DNA from: an uncultured Planctomycetota bacterium
Lineage (GTDB): Bacteria > Planctomycetota > Planctomycetia > Gemmatales > Gemmataceae
Assembly (NCBI GenBank): GCA_963849325.1
Contig: CAWKHF010000005.1
Coordinates: 672,001 to 736,000, forward strand
DNA: 64,000 nucleotides
Reading direction: 5' to 3'
In this document: piece by piece, positions 43,234 to 47,727 of the stretch
Position numbering within the stretch: the first letter of the stretch is position 1
How the letters are laid out: every line of letters begins with the position of its first letter
Notes under the pieces: generated by a model
The model's input: the letters and a program-made list of their open reading frames with translations, nothing else
Database searches by the model: none
What the model was told of the DNA's origin: nothing
Translations under genes and position numbers: made by a program

Positions 43234-43338
43234 GCGGCAAACCGGCTTGGTGCTGGAATGCGGAATGGGTATCGTGCCGCCAGCGATGGATTGCACAGAC
43301 CCATCGCTGGCGCTCCGCACTCGTTGGGAAATCCCGTC

Positions 43339-44251: not shown

Positions 44252-44596
44252 CGCTTTTTGGGCATTTTTTTCGGTTTATTTCCTGAATTGACACAAAAAA
44301 TAGCCTTCTGATGGCCGAGTATGATCAAATAAGTAGACATTATTAGACTTTGCACAAAAACGCGGTTCTGCACAAAAACCCTTCGGGCTGCACAAAAACG
44401 CCAGTATGGCAGGTGTCGAAGTGGCAGAAAGGAGACAGATAGGAATGCGCGGATGGAAGTAACCCCTATCCGACAAGGGAGAGAGAAGCCTCTGAACCTT
44501 GCCGGATAGGGTACTTGCGATGGCCGGTTGACAAGACCGACCGTCCGGGACTTTGTAGCCCCTGGCACTGCTTCGGCAATCTACTGTTGAAGTCTC

Positions 44597-44625
44597 TTGA
44601 CTCGAAGAGTTGAGGGATCTACGAT
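44597..44625 (+). promoter_or_regulatory. Sigma70-type promoter inside the transposon left arm
   Basis: TTGACT-17 nt-TACGAT. Confidence 0.6.
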
Positions 44626-44630
44626 GGTCA

Positions 44631-44747
44631 GAGTTGGCGGTCTGACTAACCGCCGATCTCCAAAATTCTGATTATCGAGTGCCAAGAAGCGGGCACCGAA
44701 AGAGCGACTATATGTCGCTGTTTTCGGTGCCCGCTTCTTTTGTTTTG
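44631..44747 (+). ncRNA. Putative small RNA/attenuated leader
   Basis: 5' hairpin GGCGGT...ACCGCC, then long stem AAGAAGCGGGCACCGAAA/TTTCGGTGCCCGCTTCTT and T-tract. Confidence 0.5.
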
Positions 44748-44835
44748 CAGGAGATGAAGAAGGCCAGCGAACGAAGAATGGCCCGGCAACGTCGGCGACC
44801 AACTGCCAAGGAGGAGCCGACGCGCGCGGGGGAGT

Positions 44836-44909
44836 GCGGGTGTAGCTCAAACGGATAGAGCAACCTGGTGCTAACGGGAAGGTTGCAGGTTCGAGTCCTG
44901 CCACCCGCA
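44836..44909 (+). tRNA. tRNA(-like) gene, anticodon GCT, short variable arm, Arg-like body; CCA not encoded
   Basis: Acceptor GCGGGTG/CACCCGC, D arm GCTC/GAGC, T arm GCAGG-TTCGAGT-CCTGC, anticodon loop GTGCTAA. Confidence 0.8.
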
Positions 44910-45075
44910 TCCCTTTCTTACTCTTTTTTCTGAGTTTTGAGAAGTAGAGCGGCCAAGGGGGCAGGTTTTGTCCCCGCTCGCCCCTGGCGCAAGCCTGGCG
45001 CGATTGGATGGCGTCTCTGCGCTGGAACAAGGACGTAATGGCATGAGAAAAATCGACACAAATCCTCTGCTACAA

Positions 45076-45104
45076 TTTACTTACGACGATATACTGTGTA
45101 TAAT
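45076..45104 (+). promoter_or_regulatory. Transposase promoter
   Basis: TTTACT-17 nt-TATAAT. Confidence 0.65.
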
Positions 45105-45111
45105 GGCAGCA

Positions 45112-45193
45112 GAGAAAAACAAAGCCTCCGAGGTTGCTGGAAACAACCTCGGAGGCAGATGCAACCGGCGGGTTGACGCCAGAAGCACCCTCA
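45112..45193 (-). ncRNA. Predicted cis-antisense RNA to the transposase leader
   Basis: Minus-strand TTCCCA-18-TAGAAT (45229-45200); perfect 13-bp stem 45124-45156 followed on minus by TTTGTTTTT. Confidence 0.5.
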
Positions 45194-45240
45194 ATCGCAA
45201 TTCTAGCGATCCCGCCGACTCTCTGGGAAGGGATCGCTCC

Positions 45241-46497
45241 ATGAATCCCTCTGATCCACGCCAGCAAAGAGCGGAACAGATCCTTGCGACCGGCATGATT
45301 GTCCGGCAGGGACACATCTTCTTCGTGCCGAGTCAGTCCGGCAAGCCGCGCCACTCCGTCATGCTGGACGGCGAAGCGCCCTCTTGCGACTGCGCCGATT
45401 TTGAAGAACGACAGCTTCCGTGCAAGCACATTTTCGCCGTGCAAATGATGCTTGAGCGGGAGAAGACCGGCGAACCGCTACCCGAGCCGGTCAAGGTGCC
45501 GTTGCCTCCCAAGCAGAAGACCTATCCGCAGGACTGGCCGAACTACAATCTTGCCCAGACCAACGAGAAGGACCACTTTCAGGCGCTCTTGGCGGACCTA
45601 TGCCGGAACGTCCCGGAACTTCCACCTGCGAAGACCGGCCGCAAGCGTATCCCGCTGGCCGATGCGCTCTTCGCGGCCACGTTCAAAATTTACTCCACTC
45701 TCTCGGCGCGGCGCTTCATGTGCGACCTGGAGGAAGCCCACCGGCGCGGGCACGTCGGACAGGTGCCCTGCTTCAATAGCGTCCTCAACTGCCTGGACAA
45801 CGCCGACGTGAAGCCGATCCTCTTTGACCTCATCCGGCAAAGCGCTCTACCCTTGCGCGAAGTAGACACGGACTTCGCCGTGGATTCCAGCGGCTTTATG
45901 ACCTCGCGGTTCGTCCGCTGGTTCGATCAGAAGTACGGCAGCACGAAGCAGGCGCATGAGTGGGTCAAGGTCCACATCATCACCGGCGTCAAGACGAACA
46001 TCATCGCCGCCGTGGAAATCCTCGACAAGCAGGCGAACGACTTTCCGCAGTTACCTGCGCTCGTCCGGGCAGCGGCCAAGGGCTTCCGCGTGGCGGAGGT
46101 CAGCGCCGACAAGGCATACGCCGGCCGCGAGAACTTCGACGCCGTGGCGGAAGTCGGAGGCACGCTGTACGCGGCCTTCAAGTCGAACACGACCGGCAGC
46201 GTCGGCGGGCTATTCGAGAAGATGTTCCATCTGTTCTGCCTGAACCGGGAGGACTACCTGCGGCACTACCACAAGCGCTCGAACGTCGAAAGCACGTTCA
46301 GCATGGTCAAGCGGAAGTTCGGCGATTCCCTGCGGTCCAAGTCGGACGCGGCGATGGTCAACGAGGCGCTGGCGAAGCTGCTCTGCCACAACCTCGTCGT
46401 GGTGATTCACGAGATGTACGAACTGGGGATTGACCCGACGTTCGGCGCTCCGACCAGAGAGGAATTACCCTGGTTCATTCTGCGGTTCCCAGGTTGA
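45241..46497 (+). CDS. SWIM zinc finger + DDE transposase (DDE_Tnp_1-type)
   Basis: SWIM CDCADF...CKH; DW.NYN; DSSGF; WVKVH; ADKAY; YHKRSNVESTFSMVKRKFG. Confidence 0.9.
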   Translation: MNPSDPRQQRAEQILATGMIVRQGHIFFVPSQSGKPRHSVMLDGEAPSCDCADFEERQLPCKHIFAVQMMLEREKTGEPLPEPVKVPLPPKQKTYPQDWPNYNLAQTNEKDHFQALLADLCRNVPELPPAKTGRKRIPLADALFAATFKIYSTLSARRFMCDLEEAHRRGHVGQVPCFNSVLNCLDNADVKPILFDLIRQSALPLREVDTDFAVDSSGFMTSRFVRWFDQKYGSTKQAHEWVKVHIITGVKTNIIAAVEILDKQANDFPQLPALVRAAAKGFRVAEVSADKAYAGRENFDAVAEVGGTLYAAFKSNTTGSVGGLFEKMFHLFCLNREDYLRHYHKRSNVESTFSMVKRKFGDSLRSKSDAAMVNEALAKLLCHNLVVVIHEMYELGIDPTFGAPTREELPWFILRFPG

Positions 46498-46664
46498 CGC
46501 CTATGAATCGCGTGTCGGTTCGACCGGCAACGCGCTTTGTTTCATGGCCTCGACTGTCCGAAAACGACCTTTACGATAAAATGTTAGTTCGCCCGAGGTC
46601 GATGAGAAACTTCGGGCATAGAATCCTCAAGTCGAGGAACCCTGCTCGATTGCGAGGCCGGTCA

Positions 46665-47249
46665 ATGTCTGAAATCGAATCGCGACTACTCCAGTTGCTC
46701 AAAGACCGCTCGTTCACGCGGGGAAGGTTTCGCCTTGCCTCTGGCGGCGTGAGCGATTACTTCATTGACGGGAAGATGACCGAGGTTTACTCCGAAGCCG
46801 TTCCCCTGATCGGAGAAGCCCTGTACGAGCGTACCAAGGGACTGAACATTGAAGCCATCGGTGGCCTAGAGGTCGGTGCCGTGCCGCTGACCACGGCGGC
46901 CGTTTTCAGTTACGCCCTACATGGCAGAAAGATGGAAGGCTTTTGGGTTCGCGCCAAGCCAAAAGATCACGGAACTCAGAAACTCATCGAAGGGAACCTC
47001 AAGCCCGGATCGCGCGTCGTTGTCGTGGATGACGTGTTTACGAAGGGGAACTCTGCTGCTAAAGCGGTCGAGGAAGTGCGAAGGGTAGGCTGCGAAGTCG
47101 TAGCGGTTTTGGCTCTTGTGGATCGCCTCCAGGGGGCCGCAGACCTCTTCCGAGAACTCGGCGTAGTCAACTACCAACCCATCTTCACAATCCGCGATTT
47201 TGGGGTCGGAGCCGATGTTTGCGGCACAATTGAAGCCACTTCTCGCTAG
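46665..47249 (+). CDS. pyrE: Orotate phosphoribosyltransferase (transposon passenger)
   Basis: GRFRLASGGVSDYFID, GGLEVGAVP, VRAKPKDHGTQKLIEG, VVVDDVFTKGNS, LVDR. Confidence 0.85.
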   Translation: MSEIESRLLQLLKDRSFTRGRFRLASGGVSDYFIDGKMTEVYSEAVPLIGEALYERTKGLNIEAIGGLEVGAVPLTTAAVFSYALHGRKMEGFWVRAKPKDHGTQKLIEGNLKPGSRVVVVDDVFTKGNSAAKAVEEVRRVGCEVVAVLALVDRLQGAADLFRELGVVNYQPIFTIRDFGVGADVCGTIEATSR

Positions 47250-47547
47250 TGGCCCCTTGCTTGGCGATAGGCTGCGGGACGCTGCTGCCATCTGCGATTC
47301 GTGGTACTCGGCTGAGCCAAGCCTTGTCACTTTCACGCTCCAGTCGCTCCTCAAAGACTTGATCGACCGGGGTTGGACTGATCCGCAGGGCGTCCCCATC
47401 GCTCAGTATCAACCGTTTGAAACCTTGGTGCGTCCCAGTTTGATTCAGGTCGTGGATATTCTCGTCGCTACTCCGGCGGCCGAGCCGATCCCCGAACTTG
47501 ACGCTCTTCTCGTCGCCTACCGAGACTCTATTCGGGCAACCCCCTGA
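47215..47547 (+). CDS. Hypothetical protein (transposon passenger), overlapping pyrE 3' end
   Basis: GGAG RBS + ATG; 110 aa helical-looking ORF. Confidence 0.5.
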   Translation: MFAAQLKPLLASGPLLGDRLRDAAAICDSWYSAEPSLVTFTLQSLLKDLIDRGWTDPQGVPIAQYQPFETLVRPSLIQVVDILVATPAAEPIPELDALLVAYRDSIRATP

Positions 47548-47673
47548 CTCCTCTCCTGCCATCCTGGCACTTGCACAAAAACTCCTCCGCCTGCACAAAA
47601 ACTCGGTCAATCCGAGGTCTTTTTGTGCAAAGTCACATTATTAGACAAGCGAGAGAACGTGTGGAAATGCCTT

Positions 47674-47727
47674 GAGCCTGAAGCGTAAGCGAAGAAGGGT
47701 ATCCTTCTTCGCTTACGCTTCAGGCTC
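47674..47727. repeat. REP-like palindrome, family C
   Basis: GAGCCTGAAGCGTAAGCGAAGAAGG/CCTTCTTCGCTTACGCTTCAGGCTC perfect arms. Confidence 0.85.

Follow-up and report, generated by a model that had tools for sequence, protein, structure and literature searches.

The window analysed here, a 64,000-bp stretch of DNA from an uncultured bacterium of the Gemmataceae (contig C5:672001-736000 of genome G000, which comprises 14 contigs and 8.16 Mb), possesses a mobile element of 3,289 bp at positions 44346-47634. From left to right the element carries a block of strong hairpins, a tRNA-like gene, an intact transposase gene, a second genomic copy of pyrE and a small gene designated ORF3, all enclosed by two matching ends and two copies of a 9-bp target sequence (Table 1). 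Very probably it is an autonomous single-transposase cargo transposon, or 'transporter IS' (tIS; IS, insertion sequence), driven by an IS903-group-type DDE enzyme with an added SWIM finger and working by the mechanism proposed below.

Table 1. Features of the element and its target site (window positions)
Feature	Position	Strand	Basis and details
Target-site duplication, left copy ACATTATTA	44337..44345		direct reading and repeat finder; single copy at the empty site of four sister genomes
Left end	44346..44413	+	terminal 15-bp inverted repeat GACTTTGCACAAAAA at 44346-44360; direct copies of TGCACAAAAAC at 44351, 44369 and 44389; GCCAGTATGGCAGG block at 44400-44413
Orphan run of strong hairpins	44396..44745	+	fold z-scores; ends in an 18-bp-stem hairpin (44684-44739), then TTTTGTTTT
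Leader hairpin CGTCGGC...GCCGACG	44790..44822	+	direct reading and alignment; directly precedes the tRNA-like gene; also present in the C6 paralogue element
tRNA-like gene, class-I body, anticodon loop UGCUAA (GCU)	44836..44909	+	ARAGORN (44835/6-44909/12), Rfam
Promoter-like TTTACT-17-TATAAT ahead of the transposase gene	45076..45104	+	promoter scan; conserved in three relatives
Predicted antisense unit	45114..45229	-	promoter and terminator scans; promoter-like TTCCCA-18-TAGAAT (45229-45200), hairpin (45156-45124), T-tract
Transposase, 418 aa, intact	45241..46497	+	Pfam, NCBIfam, BLASTP against ISAba10
pyrE (orotate phosphoribosyltransferase), second genome copy	46665..47249	+	TIGR00336
ORF3, 110 aa, all-helical	47215..47547	+	start set by homologue comparison; overlaps the end of pyrE
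Right end	47555..47634	-	CCTGCCATCCTGGC block at 47555-47568; TGCACAAAAAC in + orientation at 47572 and 47592; terminal inverted repeat at 47620-47634
Target-site duplication, right copy ACATTATTA	47635..47643		direct reading and repeat finder

A preliminary description of the locus had reported perfect 15-bp terminal inverted repeats and a 9-bp target-site duplication, and both were confirmed by direct reading and with a repeat finder. With its flanks the element reads TAG-ACATTATTA-GACTTTGCACAAAAA ... TTTTTGTGCAAAGTC-ACATTATTA-GACAAG; the right 15-bp terminus is the exact reverse complement of the left one, and the two copies of the duplication match at nine of nine positions. The terminal 15-mer is found twice in the window at up to two mismatches (shuffled sequences average 0.03 matches and reach two in 0 of 100 cases), and its only two occurrences in the whole genome are the element's own. 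The ends are longer than had been claimed, as they contain further copies of TGCACAAAAAC and, about 55-70 bp in from either tip, a GCCAGNATGGCAGG block whose two copies are in inverted orientation. The left end contains three direct copies of TGCACAAAAAC, the right end two plus the inverted terminal copy; together these make up six of the seven matches in the window, where 0.47 would be expected, and six of the eleven genomic copies of TGCACAAAAA likewise sit in the element ends. The layout of the left end recurs in related elements of three other genomes (G202, G096 and G257).

The transposase contains a DDE_Tnp_1 domain (PF01609; residues 210-385, E = 1.1e-19) and a SWIM domain (residues 40-67, E = 2e-5) with the signature C49-x-C51-x9-C61-x-H63, so that profile searches recover both of the domains suggested at first reading. 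Its assignment as an IS903-like enzyme, initially made from motifs aligned by eye, is borne out by comparison with the ISAba10 transposase: in a BLASTP alignment residues 91-367 match positions 6-278 of 309 (25% identity, E = 2e-11), and the catalytic triad D215, D290 and E350 is aligned. All five motifs pair between the two proteins (DWPNYN/NWSEYN, VDSSG/VDSTG, WVKVH/WLKLH, ADKAY/ADGAY and YHKRSNVE/YHRRSRIE). Because the alignment covers nearly the whole ISAba10 protein with all its motifs, the transposase, judged by its sequence, is a complete IS903-group-type enzyme (IS5 family) preceded by about 90 extra residues that hold the added N-terminal SWIM finger. An upstream extension of the reading frame (44968-45240) was considered as part of the protein and rejected, since it matches no family and the homologues start at residue 1-7. 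The 418-aa protein passes none of the other NCBIfam transposase models, and a sequence search against solved structures returned nothing useful. A tblastn search of 72,556 plasmids retrieved classical IS5-family elements alone, at 23-33% identity, and none of the 363 matching plasmid records covered at least 80% of the query.

That the whole segment moved as one piece is seen in related genomes. The search for the flanks covered 10 other genomes of the genus, and in four of them (G204, G166, G100 and G083) the left and right flanking genes, encoding a 166-aa protein of no Pfam family and an HtrA-like protease with Trypsin_2 and PDZ domains, are adjacent and only 170-385 bp apart. The spacer holds a single copy of ACATTATTA (G204, G166) or ACATTGTTA (G100, G083), i.e., ACATT(A/G)TTA, followed by GAC; the tRNA-like gene, the transposase gene, pyrE and ORF3 are all absent from these four sites. 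With one target copy and no cargo in four sister species, the 3,289-bp element is a true insertion that entered this site as a unit, in agreement with its first description as a self-contained 3.3-kb transposon.

Two passenger genes had been proposed to the right of the transposase gene, and both are real. The product of pyrE passes the family model TIGR00336 (128.7 bits, cut-off 106.8), which points to an orotate phosphoribosyltransferase; the other host pyrE, at C5:814163, is 70% identical to the element copy. In a protein tree of the genus the element copy pairs with that of G198 (support 86/94) inside the genus clade, indicating that the gene was taken from the genus's own pool. ORF3 is conserved, with homologues in seven of 251 other genomes of the family, and all five that were fetched follow a pyrE homologue, one of which is just a fragment. 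Two ORF3 copies have in-frame stops (L145 and L147) and were left out of the comparison. The protein has 11 database clusters, all unnamed, and matches no Pfam or NCBIfam family; its predicted structure consists of six helices (pLDDT 94.5), for which the best Foldseek match in the Protein Data Bank has an E-value of 1.9. An element from a different genus (g50, genome G257) with a 49%-identical transposase retains the order transposase, pyrE (73%), ORF3 (58%), right end, together with the same repeat layout, so the pyrE-ORF3 pair is a recurrent cargo.

An alternative view would hold that the tRNA-like gene, the RNA block and pyrE are host DNA caught between two solo ends or between separate insertions, making the locus a compound structure and not a moving cargo. 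The single copy of the element in its genome, the position of its pyrE within the genus's own pyrE clade and the presence of only one end beside the G198 pyrE would suit this view. We nevertheless regard it as highly improbable: at the empty sites, where 170-385 bp separate the flanking genes, none of these genes is present; the ends form a matched left and right pair sharing one 9-bp duplication; the transposase-pyrE-ORF3-end order is kept in another genus; and tRNA genes occur inside delimited elements, one of which exists in three copies with three different duplications. As a separate observation, the pyrE of G198 (L133/L129, G198:C1:182643-183194), next to its single end, is the only pyrE found in that genome with this query, although the genome is 74% complete and a second copy may be unassembled. 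If G198 truly has no other pyrE, transposon cargo would have become its working gene.

The element belongs to a large family. Its own genome contains seven more relatives of the transposase, one intact (C6:234613-235842, 47% identity) and the others broken. The intact one, referred to here as the C6 paralogue, lies in a 2.5-kb element that has GGCTTTGTTGCCAAAC ends, is flanked by a 10-bp duplication and contains subterminal repeats of its own. Of the 201 genomes of the order, 54 have a match at E<=1e-20, G000 included; the other 53 all fall in one family, represented by 185 genomes, and none of the 15 genomes of the other family matches. Among 8,000 scored candidates in the protein database, 7,689 clusters match at E<=1e-10, most of them with both Pfam domains and named just 'transposase', and the named relatives come from Gemmataceae, Acidobacteriota, Chloroflexota, Bacteroidales and many methanogens. 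Relatives 79-83% identical are known as proteins, while a metagenome scan gave relatives of at most 55% identity.

To delimit whole elements, 60 loci were sampled, 24 of which had a partial transposase match and were left out. Among the 36 near-full-length loci, 15 gave no end pair and 21 were delimited by an end pair beginning GGCTTTGC (GGCTTTGCA ends). The duplications comprise 18 perfect 9-bp copies, one of 9 bp with one mismatch and one of 10 bp; one element has none. The delimited elements measure 2,326-5,306 bp, with left arms of 550-3,445 bp and right arms of 44-1,637 bp; as the transposase gene takes up 1.2 kb, every one of the 21 carries at least 1 kb of extra DNA. A Pfam search of 53 cargo reading frames, mostly the longer of the 97 listed plus some others, revealed a ClpP-like SDH protease encoded by three elements, a BsoBI endonuclease accompanied by a methylase, an NYN domain, two DUF4365 matches and an HTH-IrrE protein, with no match for most. 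Several otherwise full-length relatives of the transposase (e.g., G059:C12, G123:C1 and G136:C50) contain exactly one in-frame stop codon, TAG, TAA or TGA. In the left arm of one tRNA-bearing relative there is an int-alpA RNA motif (RF02996, L029:351-419; 55.2 bits, gathering score 35.8), and the C6 paralogue has a small HTH-like reading frame at the corresponding place.

The surmise of a poorly described family of single-transposase cargo transposons thus agrees with what the relatives look like, all 21 delimited ones being 2.3-5.3 kb long. Searches of the full-text literature found no published description of a SWIM/IS903-type cargo family or of a tRNA-carrying IS5 element, and neither 'SWIM' nor 'IS903' occurs in a 2026 survey of archaeal insertion sequences.

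Likeness to the IS903 group, represented by ISAba10 and ISVa2, extends from the catalytic and DNA-binding body, with its shared motifs and DDE triad, to the best-scoring NCBIfam model, which is the same for all three. ISAba10 and ISVa2 end in GGCTTTGTTGC; the termini of the C6 paralogue and of the 21 delimited relatives begin with GGCTTTG, and those of the element with GACTTTG, one change away. IS903 itself, the type member of this group, likewise ends in GGCTTTG. The duplication is 9 bp long in both the element and ISAba10 (GTTTCAACA). In contrast, ISAba10 and ISVa2 are 1,023 and 1,054 bp long and encode one protein of 306-309 aa without cargo, whereas the element has 3,289 bp, a 418-aa enzyme with a SWIM finger, three further genes, multi-site ends and two cargo slots. 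Beyond the features of this group, the element has the SWIM finger, the multi-site ends, the two cargo slots and, for this lineage, a fixed target.

Transporter ISs are insertion sequences with passenger genes and are usually rare variants within IS families. The element resembles them in that one transposase and IS-type ends with a duplication enclose passenger genes, as the empty sites, the gene order in G257 and the relative present in three copies testify; it differs in that extra DNA is carried by 21 of 21 delimited members of its family. Eukaryotic Mutator-like (MULE) and FAR1-type transposases also carry SWIM fingers, which in MULE enzymes are C-terminal. Both here and there a CxCxnCxH finger is joined to a DDE transposase, but the element's protein has PF01609 and no MULE domain in Pfam, its finger is N-terminal, and common descent of the fusion is unsupported.

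The left arm of the element was described initially as containing small RNAs; these are predictions only, and comprise here a structured block and an antisense unit. The 350-nt block at 44396-44745 folds far better than shuffled sequences on either strand (z -9.7 on the plus strand, -9.1 on the minus strand) and matches no Rfam family. At permissive thresholds Rfam finds only the tRNA between 43800 and 48200; the microRNA-like rows correspond to the terminator hairpin and are far under their gathering scores. As the block has no relatives, any role assigned to it is a guess: it might be a transcription insulator against read-in, or an unknown RNA. A guide-RNA function in the style of bridge RNA or omega RNA was considered and rejected, as there is no IS110-type, TnpB or reverse-transcriptase gene, and the G202 element uses the same target without the block.

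Closer to the transposase gene, a 13-bp hairpin followed by a T-tract (45124-45156) scores as a terminator on the minus strand. In an alignment of four leaders, those of this element, the C6 paralogue, L063 and L037, 12 pairs of this hairpin are kept, six of them with compensatory changes, and covariation is likewise seen in a second stem, which spans the ribosome-binding region. Together with the promoter and terminator calls, this covariation suggests a predicted antisense RNA of about 80 nt opposite the 5′ leader of the transposase gene and a structured leader, both of which may limit transposase synthesis. Control of transposase translation by an antisense transcript is familiar from RNA-OUT of IS10. 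The resemblance lies in a short convergent transcript, predicted here opposite the transposase leader and ribosome-binding region; unlike RNA-OUT, the element's RNA is a predicted one, and the two have no sequence relation.

The insertion site itself has been used repeatedly within the genus. In five further congeners ends of the same lineage (GACTTTGCACAA[A/G]AAC) directly abut the 9-mer ACATT(A/G)TTA, in both orientations, with differing cargo and, in G202 and G203, with two ends stacked. G202 (locus L063) carries a 3,948-bp element in the opposite orientation with a perfect duplication (TAACAATGT), a 79%-identical transposase and a wholly different cargo lacking both the tRNA gene and pyrE; a second left-type end stands back to back with it on the same 9-mer. 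In G096 (L125, G096:C375:82209-83711) the same target is occupied, again in the opposite orientation, by a 1.5-kb element that has both lineage-type ends and lacks a transposase. It contains three small reading frames, among which Pfam finds weak aspartyl-protease and KOW matches, and looks like a non-autonomous derivative; its duplication has drifted to seven of nine matches (ACATTATTA and ACGTTCTTA). G198 retains a single end, a small membrane-protein reading frame, a 40-bp piece of the transposase gene and a pyrE that shares 89.6% identity with the element's copy, G142 a decayed left-type end, and G203 two ends, each preceded by ACATTATTA.

The target is AT-rich, lies inside a conserved motif, TAGACATTATTAGAC, and is situated 86 bp upstream of a promoter-like sequence (TTGACA-17-TACACT, minus strand) ahead of the conserved 166-aa gene. 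The 9-mer is rare, with six copies in the 8.16-Mb genome (64.9% G+C) against 13.5 expected from composition, and two of the six are the duplication described here. A second ACATTGTTAGACAA site in the same genome (C9:437466, minus strand) is unoccupied. Since stacked ends in G202 and G203 imply more than one insertion at the 9-mer within a lineage, the arrangement argues for a site-homing habit of this element lineage. Target-specific insertion, at dif sites, has been described for the IS1202 family (PMC10132070). In both cases a defined position is hit repeatedly and a duplication is made; they differ in enzyme family and in target, and both orientations occur in the lineage studied here.

Several observations weigh against this picture of an IS903-type, site-homing cargo transposon. 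On its best NCBIfam model, NF033579 (IS5_2), the transposase scores 94.1 bits, below the 140-bit cut-off that ISAba10 and ISVa2 pass with 362.8 and 387.1 bits, and the minimal one-gene architecture of the IS903 group (about 1 kb, about 307 aa) is likewise not found in the element. The hairpin block has no DNA relative in 251 genomes of the family (two candidates per genome scored), and all of the RNAs proposed for the left arm are predicted ones. The 20 duplications of other family members are all different and show no common target sequence; therefore, site-homing would belong to this lineage or locus and not to the whole family. The element is the only copy in its genome, and its divergence parallels that of its surroundings: G000 and G202 are 76% identical in transposase DNA and 77% in the flanking gene, and the G198 pyrE has 84% DNA identity against 83% for the flank, figures that long vertical residence would fit as well.

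These figures can be read as the mark of an old resident, neither site-specific nor recently active: one ancestral insertion would have been followed by decay, inversion between the inverted ends, replacement of cargo by recombination and a few precise excisions. The drifted duplication in G096 and the missing target consensus in the rest of the family fit such a history, too. It is unlikely in our view, given that the four congeners with an undisturbed single target copy would require four precise excisions or a favourable tree, and that G000 and G202 have perfect duplications, each equal to the local site variant (A or G at position 6) that is also seen at empty sites. Moreover, the two ends stacked on the 9-mer in G202 and in G203 require at least two insertions there in a lineage, and both orientations are used. 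We therefore retain the reading of repeated insertion, with cargo turning over at one site. The suggestion that the element was recently active is affected differently: ends, duplication and gene are all perfect, which makes recent movement plausible, but the element is a single copy and its site holds older remnants in sister species.

The most unusual passenger is the tRNA-like gene. It gives a full-length cloverleaf in Rfam (RF00005, 60.3 bits against a gathering score of 29, model positions 1-71), and ARAGORN calls it tRNA-Ser(GCU). However, its variable region is just 5 nt long; the canonical tRNA-Ser has a long variable arm, as does the host's own tRNA-Ser(GCU) of 90 nt. The tRNA noticed inside the transposon at first is thus supported by both programs, but without the long arm it is not a normal tRNA-Ser, and among the host tRNAs it comes closest to Asn(GUU) and Arg(ACG). 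Its acceptor, D and T arms are intact. The anticodon stem has an A-A pair at its top, and a perfect 7-bp helix (GCAACCU/AGGUUGC) competes with it. The leader and trailer of the gene are conserved with the C6 paralogue, whose transposase is only 47% identical.

In relatives from three phyla, too, a tRNA gene can be found 128-381 nt upstream of the transposase gene and on its strand. Such genes are present at three of eight copies in the host genome, three of 30 loci of the order (this one included), four of 60 genome loci, representing two distinct elements, and one of 58 metagenome loci that included the N-terminus and at least 600 nt upstream. With 92 tRNA calls in the 8.16-Mb genome, by our arithmetic about 0.2% of 400-nt same-strand stretches would contain one by chance. 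The delimited elements that enclose a tRNA gene include the three-copy one mentioned above, an acidobacterial element of 2,533 bp, and one from Methanothrix. Five of the nine distinct element tRNA genes pair their anticodon with the wrong class of body: GCU occurs twice on short-armed bodies, AGC and CCC on leucine-type long-armed bodies and UAU on a long-armed body. Three look ordinary (Thr GGU and two Leu UAG), and a short-armed CCC gene with C33 is unclear; C33 is present in two of the nine.

A copy 92% identical over 61 nt was found in G250 (L233, G250:C276, 1492-1568, minus strand), with the same UGCUAA loop, the alternative helix kept and the anticodon stem broken. By eye its neighbours are an excisionase-like HTH gene on one side and a primase-polymerase-like gene on the other, with no transposase nearby; as this is a different mobile element, the tRNA-like gene is a module shared among mobile elements. 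Genomes of the family also have dense tRNA arrays (L236, L237, L240, L241 and, in the host itself, C12:838553-839475), with 13-24 ARAGORN calls in 2-3 kb, several of them odd, and the host Asn(GUU) gene to which the element's tRNA-like gene is most similar lies within the C12:838.5-839.5k cluster. Elsewhere in the host genome (C2:189639-189710), a glutamate-type body with anticodon UUA, which would read the stop codon UAA, is located about 1 kb upstream of a broken transposase relative.

Deliberately mistranslating tRNAs are known in bacteria, and the element's gene is reminiscent of them in that its anticodon does not fit its body. It also resembles the tRNA genes that mobile elements carry in arrays (PMC8421152), being an extra tRNA gene on mobile DNA, but it is a single gene at a fixed place upstream of the transposase gene inside an IS-sized element.

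The gene may simply be decaying cargo or a functionless pseudo-tRNA, its odd combination of anticodon and class having drifted after capture from a tRNA array of the family. We take this possibility seriously while leaning slightly against it. The A-A mismatch and the competing helix, C in place of U at position 33 in two relatives, the minority of loci that carry such a gene, its absence from the nearest relative (79% transposase identity) and the location of the closest host tRNA in the C12 cluster, which resembles the arrays of other family genomes, are all consistent with decay. Against it stand the constant position and strand in three phyla, the intact acceptor, D and T arms with a Rfam score well over threshold, the conservation of leader and trailer with the C6 paralogue, and the close copy with the same loop in a different mobile element of another genus. 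We consider a bolder idea rather unlikely: the element tRNA-like genes would be working parts, either mobile mis-decoding tRNAs or tRNA-shaped processing or recognition signals. The gene described here may then represent a non-serine body reading serine AGY codons, and its relatives leucine-type bodies with alanine and glycine anticodons or a long-armed body with an isoleucine anticodon. Combined with a SWIM finger possibly steering insertion to exactly the 9-bp site ahead of a promoter, the family would then be a very large and undescribed class of cargo transposons with a homing habit, able to rewrite decoding locally.

For the cargo transposon itself we propose the following mechanism. The transposase would bind the 15-bp termini and the repeated TGCACAAAAAC sites in both ends, pair the ends and insert the whole 3.29-kb segment with a 9-bp stagger, in this lineage repeatedly at the rare AT-rich sequence ACATT(A/G)TTA within TAGACATTATTAGAC. 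Its output would probably be limited by the hairpin-rich, terminator-ended block, which may stop read-in transcription, and probably be lowered further by the structured 5′ leader and the antisense RNA of about 80 nt. Two slots flanking the transposase gene would receive cargo, the left one here holding the tRNA-like gene and the right one the pyrE-ORF3 pair drawn from the pool of the genus.

The flanks of the element contain two dispersed repeats. Just to its right (47674-47727) lies a perfect palindrome with 25-bp arms, which has dozens of copies at 82-96% identity in the same genome and in congeners, one of them about 400 bp to the right of the element of the C6 paralogue. The other, in the left flank (43278-43334), is a small repeat of 50-60 nt, numerous copies of which, 78-88% identical, are scattered over this genome and those of sister species.

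IS903-type elements are textbook examples of minimal insertion sequences. Here, an IS903-type enzyme with a zinc finger and multi-site ends drives a very large family, extending over planctomycetes, acidobacteria and methanogenic archaea, whose members routinely move 1-4 kb of other genes, among them genes for proteases and for a restriction-modification pair, nuclease-like and tRNA-like genes and a housekeeping pyrE. Should the family indeed be uncatalogued, much of the 'transposase plus hypothetical genes' annotation in environmental genomes would hide a system that shuttles genes in general. Because sister species show one 9-bp site being used over and over, the lineage is a simple test case for how a plain DDE transposase acquires target choice, and the mismatched tRNAs are one for mobile mis-decoding.

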